Origin: an uncultured Prevotella sp.
GTDB taxonomy: Bacteria > Bacteroidota > Bacteroidia > Bacteroidales > Bacteroidaceae
Direction of reading: 5' to 3'
Assembly: GCA_934256705.1 (NCBI GenBank)
Contig: CAKQPF010000001.1
Coordinates: 40,850 to 104,849 of the forward strand
Length of the DNA stretch: 64,000 bases
Part shown: piece by piece, positions 37,036 through 62,966 of the stretch
How positions within the stretch are numbered: position 1 is the first letter of the stretch
Layout of the letters: the number at the start of each line of letters is the position of its first letter
Translations under genes and position numbers: made by a program
The notes under the pieces: generated by a model
The model's database searches: none
What the model saw: the letters and a program-made list of their open reading frames with translations, nothing else
What the model was told of the DNA's origin: nothing

Positions 37036-37099
37036 AATAAAAAAAATCCCCCCATTTATTTGCATATAATAAAGGAAATGAGTACTTTTGCATCGTCGA

Positions 37100-37180: not shown

Positions 37181-37221
37181 GGTGATTTTTCAAGCAAAAA
37201 AGCAAACAATAAGATAATCAA

Positions 37222-44658: not shown

Positions 44659-44981
44659 CCACACACAGCGTCAGCCTTTCTTCATTTGACAACCCGCCAC
44701 TGTGTCGGGCGCATTACCGCCCGATATAATCAAGAAAATACCACAGCACAAATAGCACAAACACACAAAATGCAAGGAAAAAGAAACATTTTCTGACAAT
44801 TTATGTTGTAATTTCAAAAATTATGCTTAATTTTGGAGCGTCATATTATTTAGCAACTGATTTCCACGCCCTGTGCACCGCCACAACCTGCGGTCAGCAG
44901 GACATCTGAATAGATGCTGGAAAAATGGGAATCAGGAAGAAACATCACATTAACCTATAACAATCCACAAACAAGAAGACT

Positions 44982-45164
44982 ATGACTGGAGCAATAATAA
45001 TACTTATAATAGGAATACTCGTAATGGCAGTCCTGCCAAACTTCCTTTCCGGCTCCAAGCGGAGCAAAGCCAAGAGGCAGAAAGTGCTTATCTGCAAGAT
45101 TATCGGCTGGCTACTGATATTCCTGGGAATATATGATGCGCTCAGCGTGCTGCTCGGCGCATAG
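44982..45164 (+). CDS. Small two-TM membrane protein (hypothetical)
   Basis: 60 aa with two hydrophobic helices separated by KRSKAKRQK. First ORF after the AT-rich region at the left edge of the cassette. Confidence 0.35.
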   Translation: MTGAIIILIIGILVMAVLPNFLSGSKRSKAKRQKVLICKIIGWLLIFLGIYDALSVLLGA

Positions 45165-45276
45165 GCAGCAGATGCTGTCCCCTCTTCTTCTGCAGCTAAC
45201 CACACAGCAGCAGTAACTCCATTCAGAAAAACCATCCCACAGAAAGAAAACAACAATCAAATAAACATTACGCACT

Positions 45277-46611
45277 ATGATAAACAAGATTTTATCTCTC
45301 ATCACAGTATGTATCGGTATGGCATGGCTTTCGTCATGCGGTTCATCAGCCAGAGTGGACGACATGAGCAACATCGGCGCATTCCACAAATACAGTTCAA
45401 TCAAGGAAGCCAACGTCCTCGCCACTGACGACAAGGGCGACGGCGGCGCAGTAGTGGACCTTTACATCGACTACTCCGACTGCATGACCACCGCAAACGA
45501 GTCTCCTTACTACAAGAGCGTGCAGCCTGCCATCATAGCATGCAACCCTAACTACTACTCCATCAAGGGCAATACCATCACATTCGAGTCCAACGACAAG
45601 ATGAAGGTGCACCAGTTGCTCAACTCCATCACCAACGTGGATTTTTCCAACATCAAGGGCGCGGTGGACAGCATCATCAAAAACCGCCACGAAGCCATGA
45701 TCATCACCGACGGTGAATTCTACCAGCAGGGCATCGGAGCAAACCTCAACAACCCTTACCTCGCCGACGAATTCAAGCAGTGGCTCGGCATGGGCCTCGA
45801 TGTCTATGTCTATAGCGAGCCTTACCAGTCCGGCAAGTTCGTGAAAAACCGCTATTACATGCTCTTCACCGACCATCGCCTCAACAACAACATACAGCAG
45901 ATATTCTCACGCGTGGCTCCAAGCCAGGCTGACGTGAAGATGGTGCACCTCTACAGCGGCATCCCTTCTGCCAAGGTGGGCAAGGACGGCGTGGACCTCA
46001 ACGAGCAGCTGCTCGCCACTGACGAGAAGGAAATCAACCAGGCTGCAGGCTACGAATGGCATATCCTCGACGAGAAATGGACCAATGTCTTCGACTATAT
46101 CCTCAATGCTACTGACGACAACGGCAACCCTGTCAAGGGTGGCGACTACTATCTCAGGGGCATAGACCTCGGCGTGACGGCTGAAGATGCTTACAAGCCA
46201 GCTGAAATAGAGGTGAAATGCTATGAGATCAGCGACCTCTATGATAGCTTCAACCCTTCAGCAAAGAAGAAGGTGGCTCTGCCTGAACCGCTCAAGAACA
46301 TGTTTGTCATCGACGAAGCGGCATGGAAGAGCGGCAAGGTGGTGGTGAAACTCGACCCTGCATTCGACGGCAGTTCGCTGACCGGAAGCAACGGCAACCT
46401 TCTCCGCCTCGACATCTGCGTGAAGGAGTCAAAGGAGAATTTCTCATCCAATCCTGAGATAGGCGACAAGTTCAAGTTCGACTCTCCTTACGGTCTCAAC
46501 ACCTCCGTCTATGAGAGCCTCAAGCAGACCCTCCTCGACCCTGCCATCAGTCCGGAAAAGAGCGGCAACCCTGTCATCTACAGCATCTACCTCTCCACTT
46601 ACGGCAATTAA
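45277..46611 (+). CDS. Lipoprotein with vWA-like (MIDAS) domain (cassette gene 1)
   Basis: Lipoprotein signal LSSCGSS. VVDLYIDYSDCMTT resembles a DxSxS MIDAS motif. AMIITDGEF resembles the conserved vWA LTDG motif. Confidence 0.55.
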   Translation: MINKILSLITVCIGMAWLSSCGSSARVDDMSNIGAFHKYSSIKEANVLATDDKGDGGAVVDLYIDYSDCMTTANESPYYKSVQPAIIACNPNYYSIKGNTITFESNDKMKVHQLLNSITNVDFSNIKGAVDSIIKNRHEAMIITDGEFYQQGIGANLNNPYLADEFKQWLGMGLDVYVYSEPYQSGKFVKNRYYMLFTDHRLNNNIQQIFSRVAPSQADVKMVHLYSGIPSAKVGKDGVDLNEQLLATDEKEINQAAGYEWHILDEKWTNVFDYILNATDDNGNPVKGGDYYLRGIDLGVTAEDAYKPAEIEVKCYEISDLYDSFNPSAKKKVALPEPLKNMFVIDEAAWKSGKVVVKLDPAFDGSSLTGSNGNLLRLDICVKESKENFSSNPEIGDKFKFDSPYGLNTSVYESLKQTLLDPAISPEKSGNPVIYSIYLSTYGN

Positions 46612-46797
46612 AAGGACAGCAATCAGAAGAACAAGGACAGCCCCTGTGTCCGCCGCGTTACCGGCGGATATGTCCAGCACCCTGTGACCAAAGAAAGCCC
46701 CTCCAGGGAGGGGATGGGGAGGGCTCCCACTCTTCATTCTTCATTTATAAAAAGATTCTTCATTTATAAAATAATAACCTAAAAAAATAATATCACT

Positions 46798-47187
46798 ATG
46801 GCAAGTTTCTCACAGAACATCACAACGGCAGCGCAGCTCCACTCAGCTGAAACCGCTACCTACCTCATTGACGCAGTAATCGGCGTGGCATTCGTCGTTC
46901 TCATCCTCATCGTGGCTAACATGATCTCATGGCAACCGGGAGCTCACGACCCATCACCTGCCAAGCGCAGAACATGGTTCTGGATATTGGGAGTAGCCAC
47001 ACTGTTCACCAATCTCGCCGTGGATTACTTCAACTGGATGCGCCATATCACAAAGGCACAGTTCACCAGCGAATACACCATCCACATGATTGCAGCCTCT
47101 GTAGTGGGCGTGCTCATCTATGGCATCGTGACTTTCGCCATCTGCAAGATGCAGAAGAAGGACACTAAACTGGCTTCTATGTTTTGA
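46798..47187 (+). CDS. Small 3-TM membrane protein (cassette gene 2)
   Basis: 129 aa with three hydrophobic helices. Confidence 0.5.
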   Translation: MASFSQNITTAAQLHSAETATYLIDAVIGVAFVVLILIVANMISWQPGAHDPSPAKRRTWFWILGVATLFTNLAVDYFNWMRHITKAQFTSEYTIHMIAASVVGVLIYGIVTFAICKMQKKDTKLASMF

Positions 47188-47254
47188 TCTGTCATCTGGT
47201 GGGCTTGATGTTTTATGGTAAAAAAAGACATCCCACCTCTTCACCCCACTTTAT

Positions 47255-47287
47255 TTAACGGTGGCAATTTACAGAACCACCCTAAAA
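47255..47287 (+). promoter_or_regulatory. Conserved 32-nt element with GGTGG-N12-CCACC inverted repeat and Bacteroidetes -7-like box, 14 nt upstream of the FtsZ-like gene
   Basis: ttaacggtggcaatttacagaaccaccctaaa. A near-identical copy, ttaacggtggtaatttatagaaccaccctaaa, lies at 59239-59270, 11 nt upstream of the membrane GTPase gene. Confidence 0.55.
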
Positions 47288-47301
47288 AAGAACCATTACC
47301 T

Positions 47302-48873
47302 ATGAATTCATTCAACGTAATAGCGATAGGAGGAACAGGAATGCGCTGTGCAGAGTCTCTCGTACATCTCTGCTCCATGGGTATGTTTGACAATACCGAG
47401 ATACATCTCCTCGCCCTCGACACCGACTACAAGAACGGAAACTTCAAGAGGCTGAAGACTCTGGTCGATAATTACAACAGCATCACGGCCGACAGGGACG
47501 GCGTCGCTTCCGACACGCTCTTCTCGGCAAAGATTGTATATTACACCTTCAGCCCTGACTATAATGCCGGCACCAACTACGACATCGTGGCGCACTATTC
47601 CGATGCCCAGACATCAACGCACGACGAAGACGGAGTGAAATGGCAGGAAAGCGACCTCGCTGACCTCTTCCTCGACCCTAACGTGCGCAAGATGGACCTC
47701 CAGCATGGCTACCGTGCACAGACGCAGATGGGCTCCATGCTCATGTATCATGCCATCAAGGAAGAGGCATACAAGAACAAGGGAAAAGGCTCCGACCTCG
47801 TCAGATACGTGGAAAACCTTATGACAAACTCTAACCATATCGTGTTCCTCTTCGGTTCGGTATTCGGTGGCACCGGCGCTTCTTCCATCCCTGTGCTCCC
47901 TCGTGCGCTGCAGGAGGCTGCCAAGATAATATCCAAGGATAGCAACGGCGACGTGCTCTCAAATAACTATTTCGGCACCGTCATGCTGACAAACTACTTC
48001 TGTTTCGACGTGCCGAACACGCACGAGGCGGTATATGCCACATCCGACAAGTTTGCGCTCAACTCCCAGGCCGCCCTCTCTTTCTACAATGAGGACGAGA
48101 CAATAAGGGATACCTACAAGAGACTCTACCTCATAGGACGTGACAAACCGCGCAACGTGACCCGACACGAGGCTCAGAGCGTGACGGGAGGCGATGCACA
48201 GCGCAATCCGGAAGACTACATCGAACTGCTCGCCGCTTCCGCCGCCTACGACTTCTACCAGAGCGCACTGGCGCATATGCAGAAGCCGGTATTCGGCAAT
48301 GAGGCGCAGATATACTATCGCACGCTGGCTTCCGACGAGGGCGACTGCCTCACATTCGAGTCTTTCTTCGGAGAAGACAAGGACAAGTTTGCACAGAAAT
48401 GTGGCATCATGATGGCTTCCGCCTTCCTCTTCGGACCGCAGGACTTCGCCAACAACCGCCGTAACCACTCTTCCTTCCAGGCGCTCACAGAGCAGAATGT
48501 CAAGGACATACGCGACTATTTCCGCAAGTTCTATGACCTTGAGGAACTGGACGAGACAGAGCCGGGCAGCGGATGGATCAAGCAGATGCAGGAATCTGCC
48601 ATCGACATCGGCTACAAGGGCTTCCTCTTCGACCAGGCGGCATACAGCACATCTGCCAATTCGGCACGAAAGTTCAAGTACAACGACAAGCTCTTCCCTG
48701 CCGGCTCTGCCTACAAGTACAGCGTCTCGCTCATGAGCAGCGCCTTCGACACGTTCAAGAAGGAGTTTGGCGACACCGTCTTCAGTGACAGCGACAAGAC
48801 TGCCGTCTCCGCTCTCCTGAAGCGCACGTACGATACTTTCACACGTCTTTATGGTTTCACTGTAAAAAACTAA
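47302..48873 (+). CDS. Divergent FtsZ/tubulin-superfamily GTPase (cassette gene 3)
   Basis: N-terminal NVIAIGGTGMRCAESL resembles the FtsZ T1 loop. The segment GSMLMYHAIKEE...NHIVFLFGSVFGGTGASSIPVLPRAL parallels FtsZ GRKAAEES...[26 protein letters not shown] (T4/tubulin signature). The C-terminal ~300 aa are unrelated to the FtsZ C-domain. Confidence 0.6.
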   Translation: MNSFNVIAIGGTGMRCAESLVHLCSMGMFDNTEIHLLALDTDYKNGNFKRLKTLVDNYNSITADRDGVASDTLFSAKIVYYTFSPDYNAGTNYDIVAHYSDAQTSTHDEDGVKWQESDLADLFLDPNVRKMDLQHGYRAQTQMGSMLMYHAIKEEAYKNKGKGSDLVRYVENLMTNSNHIVFLFGSVFGGTGASSIPVLPRALQEAAKIISKDSNGDVLSNNYFGTVMLTNYFCFDVPNTHEAVYATSDKFALNSQAALSFYNEDETIRDTYKRLYLIGRDKPRNVTRHEAQSVTGGDAQRNPEDYIELLAASAAYDFYQSALAHMQKPVFGNEAQIYYRTLASDEGDCLTFESFFGEDKDKFAQKCGIMMASAFLFGPQDFANNRRNHSSFQALTEQNVKDIRDYFRKFYDLEELDETEPGSGWIKQMQESAIDIGYKGFLFDQAAYSTSANSARKFKYNDKLFPAGSAYKYSVSLMSSAFDTFKKEFGDTVFSDSDKTAVSALLKRTYDTFTRLYGFTVKN

Positions 48874-48883
48874 TCACTGAATC

Positions 48884-51800
48884 ATGGCAATTACAAGCAA
48901 CCTTTTACCAAAGTGCCTGAAAGGTCACGATACTCAGATGGCAAAGCCCAACACCTGGCAGAAGATGGAGCAGGCCCGACAGTTTATCGACAGCATCGAT
49001 ACCACGGGCGGAGAAATGGACGAAACCGCCAAATTCAATCTCCTCGTCTCCAGTGTGCCATCACCTTGGGCAAGAGTTCATCTCACCCAGCACGCCATCA
49101 TGCCCGGCAATGAAGCCGGCGACACACGCACTCTGACACAGTTCTACGCCTTCATGCGAAGCGAATGGCGCGGACTCATCGCTGCATACGTACTCTATCC
49201 TGAGGACTTCGAACTGACAGACCCTATCGACCTCGTGCCTAAGGACATGGCAAGCAGGTCAGGACAGTTCGACATCCTCAGCACCTACTCCGAGATGCTC
49301 TTCGAGAATGCTCCGCTCTGGAAGCACCAGAAGGGCGATAAGGAGAAGCCAAGGATGCAGTTGCTCTATTATCACAACGGTGACAACCGATTCGTCATCG
49401 GTGGCACTTCGCCGTTCAGCATCCTCTTCGCTGGCATGAACTACAGCATTCCTGACGATGACCAGAGGATATACTGGGTAAACGGCGGCAAGCTCCAGGA
49501 CCCTGCATCCAGGGAATACGAGACTTACTACAAGAAAGACGGTGCCAAATACAACGACAAGCACTTCAACAACCTCAAGAAGCTCTATTCCTTCCTCAAC
49601 GGCATCCAGAAGAATTCCGCTGAATACGTCAATACGCTCAAGAGCATCTGGGACACTGACCATAAACTGATTGACCAGCCGAGCACCACTGATGCAAGAT
49701 ACCATATCATAGGCATGGTGCTCAATGGTGCCGTGGCAAGCTGGATGGACGACATAAAGAGTATTCTCGGCAACGCAATAGCAGAGAAGGCAAAGAACAT
49801 TCCTGTCAACCACAAGCGTCCGGAAGGTCCTCTTGGACAACTGCTTGACATCAAGGCGAAATACTATTGGAGAAATGGCATCTTCTACACCAAGCCGATT
49901 GAGACCGCCAATGTCGTGGCGGAGGTCAAAGATGTGGTGGTGGAAAATGTGGAAAGCCTCTTCATCGACAGCGACTATCTGGCAGGATGGCGCGACTGTG
50001 CCGTGCCTTCCACCGACAATATGGGCAGAGCCACGGCAAGGATGGAAAACGACTACCGCATGTCTCCTGTCCATTTCCTCACCGCCATCGACGAGCAGGA
50101 CGGCAAGACATGGTTCTTTGCCGTGCCGTTCAGTGAGTTCGCACTCATGGATGTATTCAAGCAGGAGTTTGAATCCATCATCAAGGGACTTAACAAGAAC
50201 GTCATCGTCAAGGCGGAAATAAACGGCAAAAGGGTAGATGTATATCTCAAGGCACGCATCGACGGAGAGGGCGAATGGATCAACATACGCAACCGCTCAT
50301 TCAACATCGAGGTGCCTAACTCCACAAGGAAGGTATTCGCATGGCCTAACTTCTGCTCTTCCAAATGGCAGAAGTACTACTATTACAGCGAATTCCCTAC
50401 CAATGCCACCACCGATGTGCAGATGGTGCCGGTGTTTGATGAAATCGCTGACATAGAGGACAGCAACATGCTTAGCAAGGTCTCCAAGGAGGCATTCCTC
50501 AAAATGGTGAAATATCCTGCCACAGCAACGTCCGACACCCATGCATACGAAATAATAAGGACCAACAAACCGCTGAGACGCATCAAGATACGCAAGTGCA
50601 TAGGCAATTCCGTAAGCGAACTCGGATGGCTTGTATTGCGCAGGGTGCAGTACAACAATCCTGACGAGCCGCGGGGCATACAGGTCATCAGAGACACAGA
50701 CAAGTTCTCCGGCACCACCGTGGGATTCGACTTCGGCAGCACCAACTCATGCGCCTACTACTCAGGTCAGGACGCAAATGACATACGTCCGGTTCCGTTC
50801 TCCAACAGAAGACTCGCGATTATCGGCTTCGACAACAAGCCGGTGTTCACAGCGGAGCCTAACGAACTCCTCTTCATCTCCAACGAAGAGCCACGCAACA
50901 AGAACGGACAGATAAAATCATGGCTGCATGAGCACGACCAGATGTTCATCGACCCTAACATGATGGGCGAGGAACTCATCGGCGGCGTGCCTGTCAATGA
51001 GACAAACATCACCGTCAAGAGCATGACTCCTTACGAGATCACCACCAATGCCGGCAAGCTGCATTACAACATGAAGTGGCTCGTGGACTCTGACGGAAGC
51101 CGCAGAAAGGCAGCGTTCGTCAAGATGGTATGGATACAGATATGCGCCGACCTCTTCGCTGAAGGGCTTTATCCAAAGACGCTCAACTGGTCTTACCCAA
51201 GCGCTATGGGCGCAAATGACATGAGTGCATTGCAGAGCATCTACGCTGGCATTCCTTCACCATGTCCTGAATACAAACTTGATGACAGGGAGAAATTCTC
51301 CTTCACCGAGGCTGAAGCCGTCTGCTCATACTTCCTCGACAAGCGAATAGCTCTCGCAGACTACAATCTCTTCGTGGGTATCGACATTGGCGGTTCCACA
51401 TCCGACATCCTCGTGCTCGGCAAGGACACACAGGATTACTGCAACGGACAGCCTGAGACAGCCAAGCCTACCGAACCGCAGCCACAGCCTAAACCGCAAC
51501 CACAGGCGGCTCCTGCCATCAATTATGATGACTATGGCAGGAATGAGCTGGCTGATTTGGCATTCAAGCGCGGGCTCGCCACTGAGAGGGAACTGGACGA
51601 CATGGGCAGAAAGGACATCGTGGAACTGCTCAAGGCCAACGATTCCGGACAGCCAAATTACGACGACATGAGCCGCAGCGAGCTTTGCAAGGAAGTACGC
51701 CGCCTCGGTCTGGAGCATCTCATCGACCTCGAAGAGGTGAGCAGGAGCGAGATAGTGGAATTCCTCAAGAAACATTCCGGCACGCAGTCCATCGACTATA

Positions 51801-53095: not shown

Positions 53096-53194
53096 TTACA
53101 ATAATGGGGGAGGAGAAGTGCTATCTTCTCCCCCACTCTGTTCGTTTTTCCTTCTCATCAAATGGAAGAGGATGGATGACTAATAAATACATCT

Positions 53195-55237
53195 ATGGCT
53201 AAATACCTGCAATTATATCTCGACAACGACTACATAATACCCATTGGAATGGGCGACTCAGGCAACGTCAACAAATACGTTGACCAGCAGGCGTCAAGGC
53301 GTATGTGGCTCTTCTTCTCGAATGCCACCAGCAATGGCGCATACAATTCCAGCGAGACCAACAAGGCAAATGCCGAAGCCGGAAAGGAAGGCTTCTTCGG
53401 GAATTTCTGGAACCACATTGCCAAAGCCGACAAAGTGCCGGGCGAACCCTACCTTTTCATCGAGCTGCTCGACCTCTCCGGCATCATCTCCACGCTGAGG
53501 GAATGGGCAAACATGACACTTTTCACGGAGTCACCTGAGGTGGTGCTCCATTTCTCGTCCGTCATACCTCTCAAGGCAAGGCGCGCTTTCGCCGATTACA
53601 TCGAGAAGAAACTGGGCAAGATACGCAGTTACAGCAAGGAAATCAATGACTTGCTCGCAGAGAAGGTGAAATGGGACAACAGTTCCATGACCGCTGCCTT
53701 CGGTGACCAGATGCTCGTCATACAGTCTTCCGGCAATGACATCCTCCTTTCCGTGCAGACATGGTGCGGAGAGCAGTTCATGCAGGGCGACGAAGCCGTC
53801 CGGCTGAAGAAGAAAGGCAGTGAGTTCCTCAAGATGGAGCTCGCCAAGATGGTTGTCGATTTCTATGAGAAAAGCAACAACATGCTCCTGCAGCCGCAGA
53901 AAGAGCAGGAGTATGTCTATCAGATGCAGTTCACTGAGACATGGCTGAAAGGACGGAAAGGCGACAGTGATTTCTGGGTCGATAACTTCCATTACTCGCA
54001 GAATCCGGGCAAGATATACCCGCCTGTACTCATTGACGGCAAGCAGCTCAACCTCATCGAGAAGGAAGCCATACGCAATACCATCAATGCCATATCCAGA
54101 TACAGCAGCGAGAACATACGAAACAACCTCCTGCATACCATCCTTATGGGCGACGTCTTCAGGGAAGAGATCTTCCTGAGAGACTGTGTCAGCGTCACCT
54201 CAAGCGACGGCAAATACACTTTCTTTGACGACAACGCCATTCAGGAGGCTCTCGGACGCTACAATGTAAAATACTCCACGCTGGTGGAGGATCTCCGTGA
54301 CCTGGAGCGCACATACGCCGACAAGGCTAACGAGAGGGCAAGGATAGGCACATACGTGCATAATGCCGAAGAGCTCGGAATGCTGAAGTCTCTCTCCGAA
54401 GAGGCTGAGACGAAGATAAAGAAAGCTTACGACCGTGTCAACGATGCCAACAAGGACCTCAGGGAGTCATGGGATTCCTTGATGCGCCACAGCGACTTCG
54501 AGAAGGCGAAGGACACTATTGCAAAGATGTCCACAAGCGACGAACTGACCATTGCCAAGGCGGAAGCCATGGAGTGCCTGAAATCCATCGAGCAGAAGAA
54601 CTCACTGCTCATCGACCTTCACCAGCTGCTGGAGGTGCGAGACATCGTGGAGAGCATCAGAGGCAGGGAAACGGCCATCAGAACGTATGTCAAGCAGGTG
54701 GACGACCTTCGCGAACTGCCCGACAAGCTCCGTGACCTCGTGAGGAAATATGAGGACATCTACCCCAAGTATCTGGAAGTCAAGTCACAGTTTGACCATG
54801 AGGCGACCCTCGTGGGCAGGCGCAGACTGATAGAAGAGATGAAGCCGCTGACTATGGAACCGATGCCTGTGGTGGATGTAGAGACCATCAAGGGCACCAT
54901 CAGCGTCAAGAGCGAGTCGTCAGGCGGCTTCCTCGGCATAGGAGCGAAGAAGTGCATCACCATCCGTCTCCACATAGACAAGCCGCTCCCGTGCCGTGGT
55001 GTCCTCGTCATTGCTCCGGATGTCATCATCAATATCCCGGACGGAAGATGCGGTATCCACTGCATCGACGTGGAAAAAGGCGAGGAAGGCGATGTCATAG
55101 AGATGAGGACCGACCTCCAGTCGCTCGGTCTGAACAAGTCTGCCAAGTCCCTCTTCATCAAGTTCTGGCCCCACGAAGATGAGAAAGTGCCTATCAACCG
55201 CTTTGAGATCCGCGGCACAGGCACGGTGAAAGTGTGA
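53195..55237 (+). CDS. 680-aa hypothetical protein with central coiled-coil and C-terminal beta-rich domain (cassette gene 5)
   Basis: Heptad-rich helical stretch at aa ~340-540. No recognisable catalytic motif. N-terminal IIPIGMGDSGNV is of unclear significance. Confidence 0.45.
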   Translation: MAKYLQLYLDNDYIIPIGMGDSGNVNKYVDQQASRRMWLFFSNATSNGAYNSSETNKANAEAGKEGFFGNFWNHIAKADKVPGEPYLFIELLDLSGIISTLREWANMTLFTESPEVVLHFSSVIPLKARRAFADYIEKKLGKIRSYSKEINDLLAEKVKWDNSSMTAAFGDQMLVIQSSGNDILLSVQTWCGEQFMQGDEAVRLKKKGSEFLKMELAKMVVDFYEKSNNMLLQPQKEQEYVYQMQFTETWLKGRKGDSDFWVDNFHYSQNPGKIYPPVLIDGKQLNLIEKEAIRNTINAISRYSSENIRNNLLHTILMGDVFREEIFLRDCVSVTSSDGKYTFFDDNAIQEALGRYNVKYSTLVEDLRDLERTYADKANERARIGTYVHNAEELGMLKSLSEEAETKIKKAYDRVNDANKDLRESWDSLMRHSDFEKAKDTIAKMSTSDELTIAKAEAMECLKSIEQKNSLLIDLHQLLEVRDIVESIRGRETAIRTYVKQVDDLRELPDKLRDLVRKYEDIYPKYLEVKSQFDHEATLVGRRRLIEEMKPLTMEPMPVVDVETIKGTISVKSESSGGFLGIGAKKCITIRLHIDKPLPCRGVLVIAPDVIINIPDGRCGIHCIDVEKGEEGDVIEMRTDLQSLGLNKSAKSLFIKFWPHEDEKVPINRFEIRGTGTVKV

Positions 55238-55312
55238 TGGAGAGCCACTGTGTCAGCCGCGTTACCGGCTGATATACCAAATCATTAACAAAAGAAAAAA
55301 AGATAAATAGCC

Positions 55313-56536
55313 ATGGCAAAGACAATATTATGCCCATACTGCTTCGAGTCGTTCAAGAACACCGAGGTTATGGTGCAATGCGAAAACTACACCACACGCA
55401 CCATCGACGGAATGCCGAAGGACGTATGTCAGAGAGAAGAAAACAAGCGTTTCAACAACCATTGGGACAGCATGGTAATGTCAAAGCACGTCTTCTATCC
55501 GCATATCGGACTGAAAGACAAGCTCATGGGCTATAAGCCAAGGGCGTGCGAATGCGACCAGTGCGGCGCTCCATCCACCAGATTCGTATGTCCTCACTGC
55601 AACAACTGGCTGCCTACCGAGATGATCGAGAAAGGCTCTGAAATCATTTCCGTCATAGGCGGTCCGGCAAGCGGCAAGTCAAACTATATCGTAGCCCTCA
55701 TCCAGCAGCTACAGAAGTACGGCTACAAGCTACAGCTCGGACAGATCCTACCGCAGCTCGTGGGCAGGACTAAGGCGGAATATACCCGCAATCTCTATGA
55801 GAAAGCCAAGGACTCCATCTTCAAGGACCATCAGCCAGTGGCTAAGACTGCCGTCACATCCCACCCTATCCCATGGATCTTCCGACTCGAAAGCCACGCC
55901 ACGAAGAAGGCTGTCTATCTCGTCTTCTACGATACAGCAGGCGAGAGTTTCAAGGATCCGGAGGAAATAAAGAAGAATGCCAAATACCTGGAGAAGTCAA
56001 AGGCGGTCATAGTGCTCCTCGACACCCTCTCTCTGCCTTATATCCAGAAGATTCTCGCTGCCAAGAAGATTGTCAATCCCGACAAGGCTACACCGTTCGG
56101 CGAGACCATGGATGCGCTCAAGAACTTCGCCACCGAGAATCCTCAGCTACTCAAGACACCGTTCGCGTTCGTCATGAGCAAGTTCGACTCCGTCATACAG
56201 AACCAGGAAGACCTCGACTTCGACATCGAACCGTTCAAGCACAACAGTTCGTTCATACAGACCGGCACTCTCTCCCTCAGCGAGGTGGACGAGGCAAGCA
56301 AGACCATACAGAACTATATGGAGAACCACTGGGACGAAGGTGCCCTCGGATATGACATCACCCAGAAATGGGGCGACAACGCAAGATTCTTCGGTGTCTC
56401 AGCTCTCGGTGCAATGACTAACGACAAGATGAAGATCGGAATCCCTGACGATGAGCAGGTAAAGCCGTTCAGAGTAATGGACCCACTCATCTGGCTGCTC
56501 CATAAAGTCGGTGGATTCGGCATACCTGTCCAGTAA
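55313..56536 (+). CDS. Zinc-ribbon + Ras-like small GTPase (cassette gene 6)
   Basis: N-terminal CPYC...C...C...CECDQC...CPHC (two CxxC pairs plus extras). G1 VIGGPASGKS, G3 FYDTAGESF (DTAGE as in Ras DTAGQE), G4-like VMSKFD. Confidence 0.6.
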   Translation: MAKTILCPYCFESFKNTEVMVQCENYTTRTIDGMPKDVCQREENKRFNNHWDSMVMSKHVFYPHIGLKDKLMGYKPRACECDQCGAPSTRFVCPHCNNWLPTEMIEKGSEIISVIGGPASGKSNYIVALIQQLQKYGYKLQLGQILPQLVGRTKAEYTRNLYEKAKDSIFKDHQPVAKTAVTSHPIPWIFRLESHATKKAVYLVFYDTAGESFKDPEEIKKNAKYLEKSKAVIVLLDTLSLPYIQKILAAKKIVNPDKATPFGETMDALKNFATENPQLLKTPFAFVMSKFDSVIQNQEDLDFDIEPFKHNSSFIQTGTLSLSEVDEASKTIQNYMENHWDEGALGYDITQKWGDNARFFGVSALGAMTNDKMKIGIPDDEQVKPFRVMDPLIWLLHKVGGFGIPVQ

Positions 56537-56589
56537 TGCTCCTTCATCCTAAATAGAGTTTCTTCACCTGATAACCAAACACTTTCCCT

Positions 56590-59061
56590 ATGAAATACTA
56601 TCACGTTATATACAATTCCTCCGAATGCTCAATGCTCGGGGGCACTGGTTTCGGACTGAGAACTGCCACTGAAGGCACGCCTGACTCACTCCTCAAGGCC
56701 ATCGACGCGCTCAATTTCTTTCCTGCCGACGACTGGGAGACATATCAGAACACGCCTACACCGGAGCAGATAATGCAGAATCCGGAGTGCATGGAGAATA
56801 TCCCGATGGACTATGCCGTCACCGCAATCTCTGACGACCAGGGAAACAGATACCATCTCATAGCGAGAAGGGCTTACGTCGGCTTCGACTATTCATTCTA
56901 CAAGACCGGCTCCGCAACGCGTCCGGGAAATTTCGTCATAGACTATTACATCTTCGAACAGGCTCCCGACAGCTCCGCTTACCAGATTCTCTATGAGAAA
57001 GCGCTTCCGGAGTCCAACCATTTCATTCCGGCTTCCGTCAGACCTACTGCCGACAATGAGGAAATGCGCACCATCTCCATCGGCAAGCAGCCGCTGCTGC
57101 CAGTGGAGGACAAGCCTTTCACTGCCGACGTAGAGAACGCCCTCGACAAGGATGTGGTCAAACTCTTCTTCCATTTCCTCGCCGCAAGGCAGGCAGGAAA
57201 GAAGCTATATGTCAAGGCTGACAGACAGCGCGCGCTCAAGATCACAGCAGACTTCTACCGTATGCTCGACGTAAAGTCTGCCACGGAAATACATACTCGC
57301 GTCAACCACCGTGCGGAGGGTCCTAACGAGAACTTCGACATCTACTTCATCCTCGACTCTTATCCGCATCAGGTCTATTCGGGAGGCTTCTACAGCTATA
57401 TCGAGCTCGACTCCGCCACCATGCCCGACACCGACGAGGCAAAGACCTTCAGCCACGAACTGGAGGACTTCGTCTCCGCTTCGTTCTCGGAAAACAAGAG
57501 CGACATCGATGACATCCTACGCTGGCTACTCATGCCGGAATATTCTTCGGTGAAGAAACTCTCCAAGACCACCAACGACGCATTCTTCCTCTACTGCATA
57601 CAGCCGGGAAATTTCTCCTACAGCAATTTCAGAGACAGCCAGGGACGGCTCAATGAAGAGTTCCTCAATGTCCTCATGCCTTACACCAAGAAGGAGAAAA
57701 CCAACGCCAGACTGTTCGACTCTCTCGTCACCGAGACCATCAACGATGCCACATACCAGGACATCATCCTGCTCATCAAGGAGTTCCATAAGTTTGAAGC
57801 CCTCGGCTTTGACATGAAGGAAAACAATGAGGCGGTCAGACAGCACGTCAGCGAGTGCATCCTCACAAGCCCCGACGTGCTCAGAGCCGTGCTCGACAAG
57901 ATAGGATATGACAGCGTGGTGCAGTTCTTCGACAAGGACGTTTTCGAGCGAAACGGCGACTTCACGCTCGCCAAAGTGCTCGATGCGGATATGCTGAAGC
58001 TCTACCGCCACTTCCTCTCCGATGCCGAACTGCGCGACAGGGAGACCATGCTCTACGACCGTTTCCTCGCATGCGGCATGGAGAGCAAGTATCTCATCCC
58101 TATCATCGACGACATCTACGGCGGGGAAAACGACGGCAAACTTCTCTTCTTCATCCATGTGCTCAAGGATGAACAGAAGCCGTTCGGCACCGTATGGCCT
58201 TACATGGAGCATTATCTCCAATCCACACCTTGCCCGGATTTCCTCAAGCTCTTCCAGCATAAGCTCACCGACGGACAGTACGCACCGATGTTCTATTTCT
58301 CCATCAAGGCGCACAAAGCCGACTTCTCGTCCATCGAAAGCATACAGGCACTCACCGATATTCTCCACGGCAACGAGAAACTCAAGGCGCTCATACAGGC
58401 AGGCTACCATCAGGACGGCATATATTCCGACTTCAAGGGCAATGTAAAGACGCTCTATATGCAGCATCATGACAAGGCTCAGGAAGCGCTCACCGCCATA
58501 AATGTCAATATCCTCGGATTCTTCACTGCCGTCAAGGACGACCAGCTCGCAGACCTCGCACTCTACCTCGACATGGTGGCAAACAATGGTTACCAGAGGC
58601 TCCACGAGAGGAAAGTGCCGGTGGTGTTCTCCCTCGTCAGCCTGCTCAATGACGATGAGACGTTCGGACAGATGATTCCTGCATTCGTCAAGGCTTACCA
58701 GAAGGGCGACATCCCTGCCGAAGAGCTTGCCAGACTATATGACAAGTTCAACCACGGCGTAAGCACCGGCGACATGATCGACGACCTCGACGCGAAGCAT
58801 TCCGTACCTATGCTCGGCATCATCATCTGCAAGATGAAGAAAATGCCGTTCGAACAGGCCTATGCCCTCGCCAAAGACCTCGGCATAGACAAGGACACGA
58901 GAGCCAAGGTGATGGAGGAAAACTATCAGAAAGAATACAAGTCATACCTCCGCAGCAAGAAGATAAAAGGATTCTTCAAGTCCATCATACGCATCTTCAT
59001 CCCGGCAGACAAGGACAAGAAGGATGCGAAAGCCAAGGACAATGCCGGAAAAAAGAAGTAG
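56590..59061 (+). CDS. 823-aa alpha-helical hypothetical protein with Lys-rich C-terminal tail (cassette gene 7)
   Basis: No TM segment. N-terminal SMLGGTGFGLRT glycine-rich loop. C-terminal KDKKDAKAKDNAGKKK. Confidence 0.45.
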   Translation: MKYYHVIYNSSECSMLGGTGFGLRTATEGTPDSLLKAIDALNFFPADDWETYQNTPTPEQIMQNPECMENIPMDYAVTAISDDQGNRYHLIARRAYVGFDYSFYKTGSATRPGNFVIDYYIFEQAPDSSAYQILYEKALPESNHFIPASVRPTADNEEMRTISIGKQPLLPVEDKPFTADVENALDKDVVKLFFHFLAARQAGKKLYVKADRQRALKITADFYRMLDVKSATEIHTRVNHRAEGPNENFDIYFILDSYPHQVYSGGFYSYIELDSATMPDTDEAKTFSHELEDFVSASFSENKSDIDDILRWLLMPEYSSVKKLSKTTNDAFFLYCIQPGNFSYSNFRDSQGRLNEEFLNVLMPYTKKEKTNARLFDSLVTETINDATYQDIILLIKEFHKFEALGFDMKENNEAVRQHVSECILTSPDVLRAVLDKIGYDSVVQFFDKDVFERNGDFTLAKVLDADMLKLYRHFLSDAELRDRETMLYDRFLACGMESKYLIPIIDDIYGGENDGKLLFFIHVLKDEQKPFGTVWPYMEHYLQSTPCPDFLKLFQHKLTDGQYAPMFYFSIKAHKADFSSIESIQALTDILHGNEKLKALIQAGYHQDGIYSDFKGNVKTLYMQHHDKAQEALTAINVNILGFFTAVKDDQLADLALYLDMVANNGYQRLHERKVPVVFSLVSLLNDDETFGQMIPAFVKAYQKGDIPAEELARLYDKFNHGVSTGDMIDDLDAKHSVPMLGIIICKMKKMPFEQAYALAKDLGIDKDTRAKVMEENYQKEYKSYLRSKKIKGFFKSIIRIFIPADKDKKDAKAKDNAGKKK

Positions 59062-59238
59062 AACATATTAAAGGGTGGTTCTAAAAATTAGCTTTGTTAT
59101 ATTTCGAGGCTATTTTCGAGATCAAAGTGCAAGTGAGCGAAGGAGTTATGCGGTGCATAACGACTGAACGAACTTACGCTTTGAGCCGAAAAGAGACCGA
59201 AAGATAACAAAACGTCATCCTTACAATTAAGTTTTATA

Positions 59239-59270
59239 TTAACGGTGGTAATTTATAGAACCACCCTAAA
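59239..59270 (+). promoter_or_regulatory. Second copy of the GGTGG-N12-CCACC promoter/operator-like element
   Basis: ttaacggtggtaatttatagaaccaccctaaa, 11 nt upstream of the ATG at 59282. Confidence 0.55.
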
Positions 59271-59281
59271 TACAAGCACTT

Positions 59282-60934
59282 ATGACCAACGCCATATCAA
59301 GCATCATGCCACTCGCGGCAGAGTACAGCCTCGACCAGAACGGTTCGATAGTCATCTGGTCATTCGCCATTCTAAGCGCGATAATCTTCCTCCTCACGTT
59401 CCTTTCCGACATATGGAAGAACATCTGGAGCAATATCGGAGGCGAATATGACGACAACAACATGCGCAGACTGTTCATGTTCAACAAGCAGCCTTACATG
59501 GCAGTGCTCTTCATAGCCGTGTCGCTACTCATATCAGCCCTCATAGCCGGAATATGCCTCTTCATCGTGGGAGGTGCCGGATACCTGCTCCTGTGGCTCG
59601 TCAAACTGCTGATATGGGCGCTTATCATAATAGGATGGATATGCGTCGTGGCTGGCGTACTGTGTCTCATCGGCACCCAGCCCGTCGGATGTCTGCCGCT
59701 CATCATAGGTGGTGTCATAGTATATTTCAGCGACAATCTCAAGGCATTCGCAAATGCCTGTGTAGAAGCAGGTTTCAATTTCTACAGCGCACTCAACGTA
59801 TGGGACCTCGGAATGTTCATGATTTCGGAATACGGCGTAGCATTCCTATGCGTCGTGGCCACTCCGATAGTCATAGGCATCATAGCGGCCGTCATCACAA
59901 TGATCATAGCCGGCATATTCTGGCTCGTGGAGACCATCATGACATCCAGATACAACATCAAGCATCCATGCCCGTTCTGCCATAACCCGTCAGAGCCTGC
60001 CACATATCTCTCGGAAGGCTACGAACTGCCCATCAAGCTCCGCCCTGGAATGTACGGTCTCTTCCACATCAAGCACCCTATCACACAGGAAGAAATGCCT
60101 ACGATGATTCTCAACGGCAGAGACGACCTCGAACGCATCTGCCCGCATTGCAACCGCAGAATAGGCTATCAGACCGGTGTGGAGAAGCACATCGCTTTCG
60201 TGGGTCTCCCTGAGTCCGGAAAGACCTGCCTCACATACCGCTTCGTAGGCAACATGATGAAACGCTATGCGGAAATCACGTTCACCGACAATGTCAGCAA
60301 CGAAGCCAAGCGAATCATAGCAAATATCAAGGAAGGAAAGAAGCAGGAACTCGCTGCCAAGACCAGCGTATCCGACATGAAAAGAAGTCTCCAGATCATC
60401 GTGCCGGGAAAAGGACGAATGCCTTACCATTTCTTCATCAATGACGTGGGCGGAGAACTCTTCACCGACAGCGGTGTTAGGCAGGACTATATGCAGTTCT
60501 TCAAGGACGTGCAGGTAGTCTCCATACTCATAGACCCGTTCACCATGGACTTCTCCGAATACGACATCGACGGTGAATTCGCCAAATGGTACAAGGAGAA
60601 CATCACAGACAAAGGCGTTGCAAAGAAGGAAAAGCTCTCCAATGTCATACAGACCATACAGACCATGTCGCAGCAGTTCACGCACAAGACCGACAAGATA
60701 CACGTCAATCTCATCCTCGTCAAGGCCGACACAGGCTACATACATCGCAAAGACAAGCAGGACGAAGGCAAAATCCGTGACTTCGTGGCACAGCAGATGG
60801 GAATGGCAGGAGAAATCAACAATCTGGAGAATACCTACGCATCACTGCATTTCTATGCCGTCTCTGCCCTGCAGGACACCGGTATCGACCAGATGACCGA
60901 CGGCATCATCGAACAGCTCAAGGTAAAACTGTAA
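59282..60934 (+). CDS. Polytopic membrane protein with cytoplasmic zinc-ribbon + GTPase domain (paralog of 55313-56536; cassette gene 8)
   Basis: About 6 TM helices in aa 20-215. Then HPCPFCHNP...CPHCNRR zinc ribbon. G1 GLPESGKT, G3 FINDVGGELF (DVGGE, Arf/G-alpha-like), G4-like LILVKAD. Confidence 0.6.
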   Translation: MTNAISSIMPLAAEYSLDQNGSIVIWSFAILSAIIFLLTFLSDIWKNIWSNIGGEYDDNNMRRLFMFNKQPYMAVLFIAVSLLISALIAGICLFIVGGAGYLLLWLVKLLIWALIIIGWICVVAGVLCLIGTQPVGCLPLIIGGVIVYFSDNLKAFANACVEAGFNFYSALNVWDLGMFMISEYGVAFLCVVATPIVIGIIAAVITMIIAGIFWLVETIMTSRYNIKHPCPFCHNPSEPATYLSEGYELPIKLRPGMYGLFHIKHPITQEEMPTMILNGRDDLERICPHCNRRIGYQTGVEKHIAFVGLPESGKTCLTYRFVGNMMKRYAEITFTDNVSNEAKRIIANIKEGKKQELAAKTSVSDMKRSLQIIVPGKGRMPYHFFINDVGGELFTDSGVRQDYMQFFKDVQVVSILIDPFTMDFSEYDIDGEFAKWYKENITDKGVAKKEKLSNVIQTIQTMSQQFTHKTDKIHVNLILVKADTGYIHRKDKQDEGKIRDFVAQQMGMAGEINNLENTYASLHFYAVSALQDTGIDQMTDGIIEQLKVKL

Positions 60935-60946
60935 CCACCTTACAAA

Positions 60947-61984
60947 ATGCAAGACATCAGCAGCAAAATATTCATCATATACGCCTGGGAGGACACAGCG
61001 AGAGTCAACAGCATTCTCAAGGAATGCGAGTATGAAATCAACGCCAAGCTCACAGCTGACATCGACACCGGCCACTCTCCAATCCTCGAAGACAAGACCA
61101 CAAAAGCCATCGAGGACGCTAAAGTAGTCATGGTATTCATCAGCGATGCAGCAAAGAAGTCAGACTACGTGAAGGCCGCCGTCACATATTCACTCAACGT
61201 AAACAAGAACATCCTCCCCGTCAACATCGACAAGAGAAGCATGTTCAGCTCCATGCCCGAAGAATTCAAATTCAGGGCAAAGCCGTACAACATCAACGAT
61301 GACGAGTCGAAAAACATGCTCATAGCACAACTCAAAGCCACTCTCGGCATCAACATCGAGAATGGAGACGAGTTCGGAACGCTCATCCACATCGTCACTG
61401 ACCGCAACGCCAAGATAATGCGTTACGGCGAAGACCTCGGCACCGCCGAAGCAGGAAAAGACTGCAAGATAAGGCTCGCCAACGGCTACCACCGCCTCGA
61501 ATTCATCGACACCGAAGACCCCTCCATAAGATGCATCGTGCATTACAATGTCGAAGACAATGTCAAGGAGCAGTTTCTCGAAGTGCCTATCATGCTGCGA
61601 TATGAGCAAAAACTCAGAGCCGACGAAAAAGCCAAAAGGGAAGAGGAAATCAAAAGGCAGTTCGACGAACAGAACTACAAGAAAAACCTCGAAATCGAGC
61701 AGCGCAACCGCGAACTGGAACTGAAACAGCGTGAGCGCGAAGCCGAGAGAATACATCAGAAGCAGCTCCAGGCAGCAGAAGAAGAAAGGAAGCGCAAGCA
61801 AAGGGAAGCTGAGGAGGAAGAAAGACAAAGGCAGGAAGAAGAAAGGCAAAGGCAGAAAGAAGAAGAAAAAAAGAAAAACAAGCCAAGCGGCTGTCTCATC
61901 ATCATCCTGATATTCCTCGGCATCGCCTTCCCCATCTCACTAATCTTCTCCATCCCTTATCTCATCTATAAATACAAGGATTAG
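60947..61984 (+). CDS. TIR-domain protein with charged coiled-coil and C-terminal TM anchor (cassette gene 9)
   Basis: KIFIIYAWEDTARV (TIR beta-A-like) and VVMVFISDAAKKSDYVKAAVTYSL (beta-D/alpha-D-like). Then EERQRQEEERQRQKEEEKKK coiled-coil. Terminal GCLIIILIFLGIAFPISLIFSIPYLIY TM helix. Confidence 0.55.
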   Translation: MQDISSKIFIIYAWEDTARVNSILKECEYEINAKLTADIDTGHSPILEDKTTKAIEDAKVVMVFISDAAKKSDYVKAAVTYSLNVNKNILPVNIDKRSMFSSMPEEFKFRAKPYNINDDESKNMLIAQLKATLGINIENGDEFGTLIHIVTDRNAKIMRYGEDLGTAEAGKDCKIRLANGYHRLEFIDTEDPSIRCIVHYNVEDNVKEQFLEVPIMLRYEQKLRADEKAKREEEIKRQFDEQNYKKNLEIEQRNRELELKQREREAERIHQKQLQAAEEERKRKQREAEEEERQRQEEERQRQKEEEKKKNKPSGCLIIILIFLGIAFPISLIFSIPYLIYKYKD

Positions 61985-62084
61985 ATTCCCCCATCACATC
62001 CACGAGCCCCCTCTTATTCGCTATAGGTGGAAGACAGTTACGCTCTCCGCCAGCGTCTCTTCCTCAAGGGAGGTCTCAGTATAT

Positions 62085-62140
62085 AGCCTCCCCCTCACAG
62101 GGGGATAAGAGGGGGTCTCCCGCCGCGTTACCGGCGGATA
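62085..62140. repeat. AGACCCCCTCTTATCCCCCTGTGAGGGGGA-family hairpin fused to a truncated 31-nt GC-hairpin element (right border of the cassette)
   Basis: cctccccctcacagggggataagagggggtctcccgccgcgttaccggcggata. Family copies at 548-600, 1905-1950, 2020-2070, 3745-3775, 4650-4690 and 12160-12290. Confidence 0.8.
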
Positions 62141-62164: not shown

Positions 62165-62557
62165 ATGAAAACAAATCCCCTAATCCAAGCCCTCCTGATA
62201 GCTATCCTGTCCCTCGTCCTCACAGCCTGCAACAAGCAGGAGCAAGCCATCGATGACCTCCGCTCCTTCTCAGAGCAGCTGAAGGAAGAATCCGCCGACT
62301 ACACCGAGGAAGACTGGCAGCAGGCAGGCGAGCAGTACCAGCAGCTCGTCGAGGAAATCAACCAGTACGAATTCACCGACGAGCAACTCAAGGAAATCGG
62401 CCGTCTCCAAGCCGTCTGCATCAAGCAGATGAGCAAAGGTGCCATGAAGATCATGCGCCACAACATGAACAGCATCTCCAAGCAGCTCGAAGGAGCCCTC
62501 GAAGAATTCATGTCCCCCGACACCGACCAGCCGGACCAGGACGACCAGGAGGAATAA
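62165..62557 (+). CDS. Small acidic lipoprotein (hypothetical)
   Basis: Lipobox LVLTAC. 130 aa with a D/E/Q-rich C-terminus. Confidence 0.55.
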   Translation: MKTNPLIQALLIAILSLVLTACNKQEQAIDDLRSFSEQLKEESADYTEEDWQQAGEQYQQLVEEINQYEFTDEQLKEIGRLQAVCIKQMSKGAMKIMRHNMNSISKQLEGALEEFMSPDTDQPDQDDQEE

Positions 62558-62966
62558 GCCCTCATCGCACACCGCCACTGTGTCAGCCGTGTCACCGGCT
62601 GATTACCAGCCCCTTGCCATCCCCCACAGCGATAGCCATGCCATCATCCCCCAATAGCATAGCTATTACAACGCAAAAGCGCCGTTATCAGGAAGCAAAA
62701 GCATAGCTTTCACTCCCTGATAACGGCGCTTTCATGAATTTTCCAGAAAGATTTTGTAATCTGCAGATTTTATAGTAACTTTGCACCCCAAATAGGCTGT
62801 TCCGAACGCAGCCTCGCCACAAGGCTCCACCAGCGGAAATGATTTGCATTATCAATTGTGCATTATGAATTATGCATTATGAATTGTGCATTATGAATTA
62901 TGCATTATGAATTGCCCCCTTACCGCCCGACATCAAGATAACAGACACCAACAAAGGAAAGAAGAA

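Follow-up and report, generated by a model that had tools for sequence, protein, structure and literature searches.

Known Systems and the Prevotella Locus

The "GTPase-centric" conflict systems, together with the DO-GTPases and the GAP1 proteins (GTPase-associated protein 1, types N1 and N2), were defined by Kaur, Burroughs, Iyer and Aravind (eLife 2020, PMC7159879). They contain paired DO-GTPases, one with a zinc ribbon (ZnR) and one transmembrane (TM), with GAP1 encoded downstream, and are characterized by membrane proximity, SH3 fusions and variable effectors, including TIR. The systems with GAP1-N2 are linked either to tubulin and vWA genes or to HSP70 genes, as non-overlapping themes; an FNIII-repeat protein accompanies GAP1-N2, and in the HSP70 theme TPR is fused to the FNIII component. 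GAP1-N2 is distributed mainly in Actinobacteria, Firmicutes, Planctomycetes, Verrucomicrobia and Chloroflexi, and the tubulin theme occurs only in Firmicutes and Actinobacteria (PMC7159879). Operons of FtsZl1 with vWA proteins and diverged GTPases, for which membrane remodelling was proposed, had been described by Makarova and Koonin (Biol Direct 2010, PMC2875224), in whose FtsZl1 alignment a sequence of Bacteroides caccae stands. The subject of the present analysis is a gene cluster in a window of 64,000 nucleotides from an uncultured Prevotella sp. (assembly GCA_934256705.1, contig CAKQPF010000001.1, positions 40,850 to 104,849 of the forward strand); all coordinates below are those of the window. 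Judging from its predicted proteins, the cluster is a Bacteroidota variant of the predicted GTPase-centric conflict system. The system consists of a five-gene core (g2, g3, g4, g5, g6), conserved across Bacteroidota, and of exchangeable regulator and tail modules.

The initial annotation of this region, made from the letters alone, had listed ten co-directional genes, and all ten were confirmed as open reading frames (ORFs) of the + strand at 44982-61984 in the ORF list of the window. To these we add an eleventh gene, g11, which is likely an additional component of the system; it is counted with the others because its homologues accompany 17 of the related loci, and 11 of these have it immediately upstream of the g2 homologue. 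TM segments and lipoboxes were read by hydrophobicity and lipobox inspection. The genes are as follows.

44982-45164, + strand: g1, 60-aa membrane protein, two hydrophobic segments (residues 4-22 and 40-58) forming a TM hairpin whose loop is basic
45277-46611, + strand: g2, 444-aa lipoprotein, lipobox LSSC at residues 18-21
46798-47187, + strand: g3, 129-aa membrane protein with 2-3 TM, segments at residues 22-40 and 98-116
47302-48873, + strand: g4, predicted 523-aa GTPase of the tubulin/FtsZ superfamily, Tubulin_2/FtsZl1 family
48884-53095, + strand: g5, 1403-aa giant protein, ~560-aa N-domain followed by an ASKHA (actin/Hsp70-fold) ATPase
53195-55237, + strand: g6, 680-aa partner with an N-domain, a helical centre (TPR or coiled-coil-like) and a beta-rich C-terminal part of ~120 aa
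55313-56536, + strand: g7, 407-aa cytoplasmic DO-GTPase with N-terminal Zn ribbons
56590-59061, + strand: g8, predicted 823-aa GAP1 of the N2 type with a Lys-rich polar C-terminal tail
59282-60934, + strand: g9, 550-aa membrane DO-GTPase, about five N-terminal TM followed by a Zn ribbon
60947-61984, + strand: g10, 345-aa TIR protein with a C-terminal TM anchor at residues 316-334
62165-62557, + strand: g11, 130-aa helical lipoprotein, lipobox LTAC

The ORF of g4 is open from 47215 (552 aa), and both its homologues and the gene callers start it at M30, nucleotide 47302 (523 aa). The genes had been described as lying with almost no intergenic space, which does not agree with the measured gaps of 10-220 nt between g1 and g10; across the related loci the genes are separated by median distances of 4.5-18.5 nt. 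The AT-rich stretch between thiE and g1 holds, ~150 nt upstream of g1, the sequence TAATTTTG (44828-44835), which fits TAnnTTTG, the -7 promoter motif of Bacteroidetes, and may be the promoter of the operon.

As in the systems of Kaur et al., two TRAFAC GTPases with a Walker-B Glu are encoded in the cluster, one of which has a Zn ribbon (g7) and the other TM segments (g9), and a GAP1 of the N2 type with a polar C-terminal tail lies downstream of a GTPase. The GTPases are linked here with a tubulin homologue and an Hsp70-fold ATPase, the whole is membrane-proximal, the terminal effector slot is variable and able to hold a TIR, and the TM GTPase of relatives carries SH3. In contrast to the published systems, the tubulin and the Hsp70-fold protein occur together in one cluster, the ASKHA protein is a highly divergent giant of 1100-1400 aa with a 560-aa N-domain, the 550-aa g9 lacks the C-terminal TM of their TM GTPase, and the same tubulin/ASKHA core also occurs without DO-GTPase or GAP1.

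The likeness to the FtsZl1 operons lies in the divergent tubulin/FtsZ GTPase domain of g4, whose T4 signature is GGGTG-like and in which inserts separate T1 from T4, and in the operon as a whole, which combines diverged P-loop GTPases, Cys-rich at the N-terminus in some cases, with membrane or secreted proteins and many lineage-specific proteins of no assigned function. Unlike the FtsZl1 proteins, g4 is short (523 aa) and has no extended coiled-coil region; the cluster has no OmpA or protein-kinase partners, vWA in its linked lipoprotein has no profile support, and the invariant giant ASKHA partner is absent from the FtsZl1 description. From the FtsZ-FtsA pair the locus differs in several respects: the cluster lies outside the dcw cluster, its gene order is reversed, it is additional to the housekeeping division genes and patchy, and its ASKHA protein is three times larger than FtsA, with motifs closest to Hsp70. 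The statement of the initial annotation that the gene set matches no described system had therefore to be abandoned, since DO-GTPase1/2, GAP1-N2 and Tubulin_2/FtsZl1 are parts of the systems described in PMC7159879 and PMC2875224.

Conservation of the Five-Gene Core

Relatives of g5 are patchily distributed: they were found in 359 of the 185,579 species-representative genomes, and nearly all of those listed belong to Bacteroidota. We retrieved 77 related loci, likewise labelled Bacteroidota with the exception of a few metagenome-assembled genomes (MAGs) bearing other labels; their hosts include Prevotella, Segatella copri, Prevotella jejuni DSM 26989, Phocaeicola vulgatus, Alistipes, Muribaculaceae, Cryptobacteroides, Tannerella, Draconibacterium and Paludibacter. 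Synteny was established by iterated HMM (hidden Markov model) searches of all ORFs in the 77 loci, and the denominator 60 used below refers to the loci with enough sequence.

The tubulin gene lies directly upstream of the g5 homologue in 60/60 loci, homologues of g2 and g3 are present upstream of the tubulin gene in 55/60, and a g6 homologue follows g5 in 49/58. Other parts are kept far less often: the g7-g8-g9 module was found in 23-25 of the 58 loci ("Type A"), and the gene after the TM GTPase encodes a TIR protein in 6/58, its place being elsewhere taken by a secreted TPR-like protein, by a g1-like TM protein, or by none. It is on these counts, high for the core and low for the GTPase-GAP1-GTPase module and the TIR gene, that the division into a five-gene core and exchangeable modules is based. 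Homologues of g1 were seen in 28 related loci, where their place in the cluster varies. In 26 "Type B" loci the core is kept and g6 is followed by two paralogues of ~190 aa, a CW_7-repeat protein, a g1-like TM protein, a lipoprotein and a P-type cation ATPase; nine loci hold little beyond the tubulin and g5. The proteins g8 and g6 also evolve fast, retaining ~20-22% identity in the loci compared where g4 keeps ~41-45%.

Examples of the Type-B arrangement are L059 (16068-22441), L072 and L050, including loci of Prevotella jejuni DSM 26989 and Segatella copri, where the P-type ATPase has ~1000 aa and a small helical protein is also encoded. The ~190-aa proteins were considered as TerD-like and this was rejected, as they gave no Pfam match and no BLASTP similarity to TerD of L094. 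The latter locus (1244-21404, in the Flavobacteriales MAG GCA_003477125.1) holds the most distant tubulin/giant-ASKHA pair and also carries two TerD genes, a Na/Ca exchanger, PRTase_3 and a HAD hydrolase, a context that may point to Ter-type and Ca2+-dependent stress systems. In L068 (Phocaeicola vulgatus MAG CP091733.1) both the g2 homologue and the g5 homologue are broken into two ORFs, by frameshifts, as pseudogenes or through assembly errors, and L048, a palindromic contig made up of fragments of tubulin and g5, is probably an assembly artefact.

Proteins of the Core

The assignment of g4 to the FtsZ/tubulin-like proteins, already made in the initial annotation, was upheld by Pfam matches of the family, by an AF2 model and by Foldseek. 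Both the T1 loop GGTGMR (47329-47346) and the T4 signature GGTGASS (47866-47886) are invariant in the family; Tubulin was matched by 22/22 aligned relatives and Tubulin_2 (the FtsZl1 family) by 18/22. In the model (pLDDT 81.6, pTM 0.88) FtsZ and tubulins top the Foldseek ranking, and the C-terminal half is compact and helical (helices 306-516), without a long coiled coil. By the family profiles and the model, g4 is thus predicted to be a tubulin/FtsZ-fold GTPase of the Tubulin_2/FtsZl1 family.

Its partner g5 has the following parts, all on the + strand.

48884-50560, + strand: N-terminal domain of ~560 aa, conserved in the family
50561-53095, + strand: ASKHA domain, with phosphate-1, connect-1 (holding the catalytic Glu), phosphate-2 and adenosine motifs present
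50723-50749, + strand: motif GFDFGSTNS
51305-51322, + strand: motif TEAEAV
51383-51406, + strand: motif DIGGSTSD
51521-51925, + strand: insert after phosphate-2, three helical repeats of ~45 aa with Pro/Gln-rich linkers, starting at residues 880, 925 and 970
52394-52408, + strand: motif GKGGR

In the family alignment GxDFGSxN (614-621), E809 in "TExEAV", DxGGSTxD (834-841) and GKG (1171-1173) are invariant, and R1175 is nearly so. The protein itself gave zero matches to Pfam, NCBIfam or PADLOC, the HSP70 model of Pfam missing it as well, and for the N-terminal ~560 aa no fold could be matched. Searched against the sequences of the PDB (Protein Data Bank), the g5 profile found at the top the nucleotide-binding domains (NBDs) of Hsp70, MreB and an actin-family protein, all of them weakly (best E 0.006), and hhalign aligned it with the NBD of DnaK over the connect and phosphate-2 region. 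Since the invariant motifs, the PDB profile matches and the DnaK alignment agree, we regard the predicted ASKHA fold of g5 as established. The protein may be an Hsp70-like chaperone or an actin-like polymer, its sequence motifs leaning towards Hsp70; it falls short of Hsp70 proper, which is marked by a match to the HSP70 profile, a substrate-binding domain and GrpE/DnaJ partners. The whole family, for which no Pfam model exists, comprises 2040 clusters (50% identity) at E <= 1e-3 and 1398 at E <= 1e-10.

The protein had been described as a giant ASKHA-fold ATPase with HeH repeats, of which the fold and the existence of three helical repeats were confirmed, whereas the HeH identity was not: the insert gave no match to the HeH, SAP or Rho_N profiles of Pfam, and we rejected it as HeH/SAP. 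The insert is limited to a close clade of Prevotella/Bacteroidaceae, and forms of g5 of ~1150 aa have none. In the homologues P0137, P0153-P0155, P0159 and P0160 the helical repeats in the ASKHA insert are replaced by GYF or GYF_2 domains.

Of the relatives of g6, 10/30 have TPR matches in Pfam, in the centre of the protein, and one has a weak HSP70 match; the PDB profile search found TPR and coiled-coil proteins. By hhalign the N-terminal ~350 aa gave 215 columns colinear with the DnaK NBD at a probability of 24%, which is weak, and the N-domain may be an ASKHA fold that has degenerated. The idea that g6 is a paralogue of the ASKHA domain of g5 was dropped, as hhalign of g6 against g5 found nothing.

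The lipoprotein signal of g2 is seen in its sequence; the "vWA-like" part of its first description lacks profile support. A MIDAS-like motif is present (D65xS67xC69 ... T144-D145-G-E147, with D65, S67, T144, D145 and E147 invariant), and yet vWA was matched by Pfam in none of 30 relatives, precomputed annotations of 67 relatives contained zero Pfam domains, the PDB profiles gave no match, and hhalign with the integrin I-domain aligned the ITDGE motif alone (probability 4%). A vWA fold of g2 is at most putative.

The GTPase Module

Both small GTPases passed the Pfam cut-off of 27 bits for DO-GTPases, g7 with DO-GTPase2 (32.7 bits) and DO-GTPase1 (31.0 bits), g9 with DO-GTPase2 (32.0 bits). The earlier description of them as Zn-ribbon Ras-like GTPases was correct with regard to the Zn ribbon and the GTPase domain, but they belong to the DO-GTPase family rather than being Ras-like. 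In g7 there are CxxC pairs at residues 7, 81 and 93, the Walker A motif GGPASGKS (55658-55681), the Walker B motif DTAGE (55931-55945) and SKFD; in g9, CPFC...CPHC, Walker A GLPESGKT (60203-60226) and Walker B DVGGE (60443-60457). All relatives of g7 (29/29) keep Walker A, DxxGE and the CxxC pairs; in the g9 family DxxGE is kept in 25/26, and Walker A and the CxxC pairs are likewise conserved. In other Type-A clades the relatives of g9 have an added signal peptide and an SH3_3 domain. The catalytic motifs are intact in all four NTPases (g4, g5, g7, g9).

The gene of g8 always lies between the two GTPase genes and is downstream of a DO-GTPase in all Type-A loci. In its family GAP1-N2 was matched by 15/26 proteins (best E 1.3e-8) and GAP1-M by 3/26, one relative is fused to a DO-GTPase, and GAP1-C was not detected.

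Proposed Function

We consider it on the whole probable that the operon encodes a membrane-associated multi-NTPase assembly, in which the GTPase-centric (DO-GTPase/GAP1-N2) conflict class is joined to an FtsZl1-type tubulin module. In the scheme that we propose, g1, g2, g3, g11 and the TM domain of g9 would report an envelope or invader-derived signal, and the two paralogous GTPases together with GAP1 would form a GTP-dependent switch or threshold; this switch would control the nucleotide-dependent assembly, or the chaperone-driven remodelling, of the tubulin-like g4 by g5 at the inner membrane. The main output would be the assembled complex and not NADase chemistry of the TIR, the latter serving as an optional oligomerising adaptor or effector. 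The modularity and variability of the loci are in keeping with the grammar of "core plus variable effector" already described (PMC7159879). Membrane proximity is indicated by the TM segments and lipoboxes here and by the SH3_3 or CW_7 domains in relatives. In favor of a role in defence speak the patchy distribution, the fast-evolving peripheral proteins, the variable tails, the families linked to conflict and a recombinase in six loci. The general logic put forward at the outset, that of a membrane-associated multi-NTPase system with a TIR output, conflict-type or cytoskeleton-like, is thereby borne out; the physiological role may be defence or an envelope or cytoskeletal function.

Several observations weigh against the conflict-system assignment or weaken it. 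The g4 protein of the window alone matched Pfam Tubulin below the cut-off, and g8 of the window matched GAP1-N2 only below the threshold (E 0.051, 14 bits, cut-off 24); because of these scores the family membership of g4 and g8 rests on family-level evidence. The host belongs to Bacteroidota, unlike the published tubulin theme, which is confined to Firmicutes and Actinobacteria. No fn3 match of Pfam was obtained in the proteins of the cluster or among the top Pfam families of the g6 relatives, and neither GrpE nor DnaJ was detected at the cluster. The C-terminal parts of g6 and g2 are, however, beta-rich and of no assigned fold, and the TPR repeats of the g6 relatives recall those fused to FNIII in the published HSP70 theme. 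PADLOC, as had been predicted, gave no match for the cluster, and it holds no corresponding model. About half of the related loci keep the core without DO-GTPase or GAP1, and therefore the core can do without the GTPase switch. The flanks are mostly housekeeping genes (the thi operon and metH here; parC, aroK, recJ, aspS and aroE in L001), few of 120 flanking proteins matched defence models, and no defence-island signal emerged. All of the 24 metagenomic contigs (24/24) encoding an identical ThiE also carry the adjoining cluster, as if it were fixed in the species. Finally, in the literature searched we found no experimental study of the DO-GTPase/GAP1 or FtsZl1 class, so that the "conflict" label is itself a prediction.

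The strongest of the other explanations, though a less probable one in our estimation, is that of a non-immune machine of the envelope, of membrane remodelling or of a cytoskeleton-like kind, built on a membrane-attached polymer of the tubulin and the actin/Hsp70-fold protein, with the GTPases or Ca2+-linked modules as mere regulators. The uses of such a polymer might, rather tentatively, be envelope maintenance, vesicle formation or cell shape, as in the FtsZl1 hypothesis of Makarova and Koonin, who proposed the role from context analysis (PMC2875224). Much of what was said above is consistent with it: the core is vertically stable among housekeeping genes, the tubulin/giant-ATPase pair never varies (60/60) whereas the loci can do without the GTPase and TIR parts, and there are lipoproteins here and peptidoglycan-binding SH3_3 and CW_7 domains, as well as sister loci with a P-type cation ATPase or with TerD and a Na/Ca exchanger; g10 has no catalytic Glu, and the defence-island signal is missing. 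However, occurrence in only 359 species genomes, and patchily, would be unusual for a housekeeping envelope function, the fast-evolving, swappable periphery and the varying tail genes are hallmarks of conflict systems, TIR, DO-GTPase and GAP1 are found elsewhere mainly in predicted conflict contexts, and in six loci a tyrosine recombinase lies directly upstream.

The TIR Protein

The presence of a tail-anchored TIR protein at the end of the cluster was verified: g10 exceeds the cut-off for TIR_2 of Pfam (37.3 bits, cut-off 28) and falls just short of that for ThsB_TIR (21.1, cut-off 21.2), and its TIR (residues 8-96) is followed by a beta-rich middle part, an E/K/R-rich helical spacer and a C-terminal TM at 316-334. 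Within g10, at 61812-61864, there is a tandem repeat of 21 nt in 2.5 copies, which codes for a portion of the E/R/Q-rich helical spacer and might give rise to differences in length.

The position of the catalytic Glu is occupied by Ala78. The column, which aligns with the Glu of "SEWVKKEI" in the TIR-TPR protein 9m0n_A (E 0.0088), reads A in the window protein and C, C, C, C, C, F and Q in the family, and the adjacent column is likewise not conserved. In terms of its residues, then, the TIR of g10 lacks the canonical catalytic Glu and is likely inactive. With ThsB of Thoeris g10 shares the TIR fold (TIR_2) and the weak ThsB_TIR match; unlike Thoeris and the bacterial TIR NADases it has Ala for the catalytic Glu, has no ThsA or other signal receiver beside it, is encoded by an optional gene and is tail-anchored through a long charged helix.

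These features bear on a third explanation, abortive infection of the Thoeris/CBASS type centred on the TIR, in which the NTPases would sense infection and the TIR would deplete NAD+ or make a nucleotide signal. The TIR_2 and ThsB_TIR scores and the listing of TIR among the effectors of DO-GTPase systems (PMC7159879) are compatible with it. Yet the substitution of the catalytic Glu here, and by Cys, Phe or Gln in relatives, the presence of the gene in 6/58 loci only, its lack in the close relative L004, and the absence of ThsA/SLOG, a CD-NTase or another partner, and of a PADLOC match, make it very unlikely. The TIR fold of the first description is therefore retained, while its interpretation as an NADase effector is weakened.

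Repeats and Genomic Setting

The region had also been called a repeat-bounded cassette, on account of hairpins at its two ends. The hairpins are real, but they belong to a dispersed REP-like palindrome, roughly CCACTGTGTCCGCCGCGTTACCGGCGGAT, of which the 64-kb window has 12 copies, against 0.02-0.14 expected by chance (two pattern searches). The copies span 4608-62603 and are mostly in + orientation, and those checked are intergenic; some lie within the thi operon. The ones relevant here are listed below.

7116-7147, 22717-22748, 37003-37034 and 38333-38364: examples of copies elsewhere in the window
44694-44725, + strand: copy at the upstream "border", hairpin read in the sequence
46638-46669: copy inside the cluster, in the g2/g3 gap
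55242-55273: copy inside the cluster, in the g6/g7 gap
62120-62139: copy at the downstream "border", hairpin read in the sequence
62572-62603: copy after g11

Since the copies are dispersed and two of them lie inside the cluster, the hairpins delimit no cassette. The absence of mobility genes stated by the initial annotation was confirmed: there is no tRNA in the whole window and no integrase or transposase domain among the proteins of the ten ORFs, and we saw no sharp GC break relative to the upstream thi operon.

The locus looks fixed within the species. A search for an empty site among the contigs with identical ThiE was futile, as every one carries the cluster; an identical giant protein g5 is encoded on at least 133 metagenomic contigs, and the six g5 neighbourhoods displayed all have the order thiG-thiC-thiF-thiH-thiE, cluster, lipoprotein, metH. 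The thi and metH flanks are kept in related Prevotella genomes (L007). The plasmid and phage collections searched contained zero records encoding a relative; relatives were found on ten IMG/VR contigs, probably in host flanks. A recently acquired mobile cassette or genomic island between terminal repeat hairpins is thus highly improbable, in spite of the hairpins at both ends, the IMG/VR contigs and the tyrosine recombinase found elsewhere directly upstream of the core (five loci of Type B, one of Type A), in view of the dispersal of the hairpins, the lack of an integrase, transposase, tRNA or sharp GC break here, the thi/metH context kept in related Prevotella and in the 24/24 conspecific contigs, and the lack of plasmid or phage matches.

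In the Type-B loci L032, L037, L045, L060 and L062 the recombinase (Phage_int_SAM_5 and Phage_integrase) is co-directional with the core and lies 238-405 nt upstream of it; in the Type-A locus L039 the distance is 802 nt. It could mark an integrative element or be a recombinase of phase variation.

Three further elements were noted in the flanks.

37097-37190, + strand: TPP riboswitch (Rfam RF00059, 67.1 bits), preceding the thiamine biosynthesis genes
62681-62727: hairpin with a 20-bp stem, just upstream of the metH start (~62968), no Rfam match
62845-62914: 14-nt unit TGCATTATGAATTG repeated five times in tandem, upstream of the same metH start, no Rfam match

Implications

One more reading, possible but doubtful, regards the five-gene core as an autonomous and hitherto unrecognised machine of Bacteroidota, in which the ASKHA ATPase would act directly on a prokaryotic tubulin at the membrane, driving or capping its assembly. 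Plug-in regulators could then, as a tentative extension of the same idea, couple the polymer switch to different inputs or outputs, be it through DO-GTPase/GAP1, the Type-B set, or TerD with a Na/Ca exchanger. If this is true, a new two-component polymer of a tubulin and an actin-fold protein, serving surveillance or immunity, would exist in major bacteria of the human gut.

The class as such was predicted in 2010 and 2020, and the version described here is common in Bacteroidales of the human and animal gut. What is new is the invariant core of a tubulin and a giant ASKHA protein, the modularity of its partners, a giant protein family without annotation and a TIR that is probably inactive. 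The distinction of the core from the exchangeable modules, together with the likely inactivity of the TIR, may guide the choice of the first targets for mutation. The system lends itself as a tractable case to the questions of whether bacterial tubulin homologues form regulated polymers outside cell division and the segregation of plasmids and phages, and whether NTP-dependent polymerisation may serve as a threshold device of immunity or stress response, an idea put forward for these systems by analogy with the inflammasome-like assemblies of eukaryotes.

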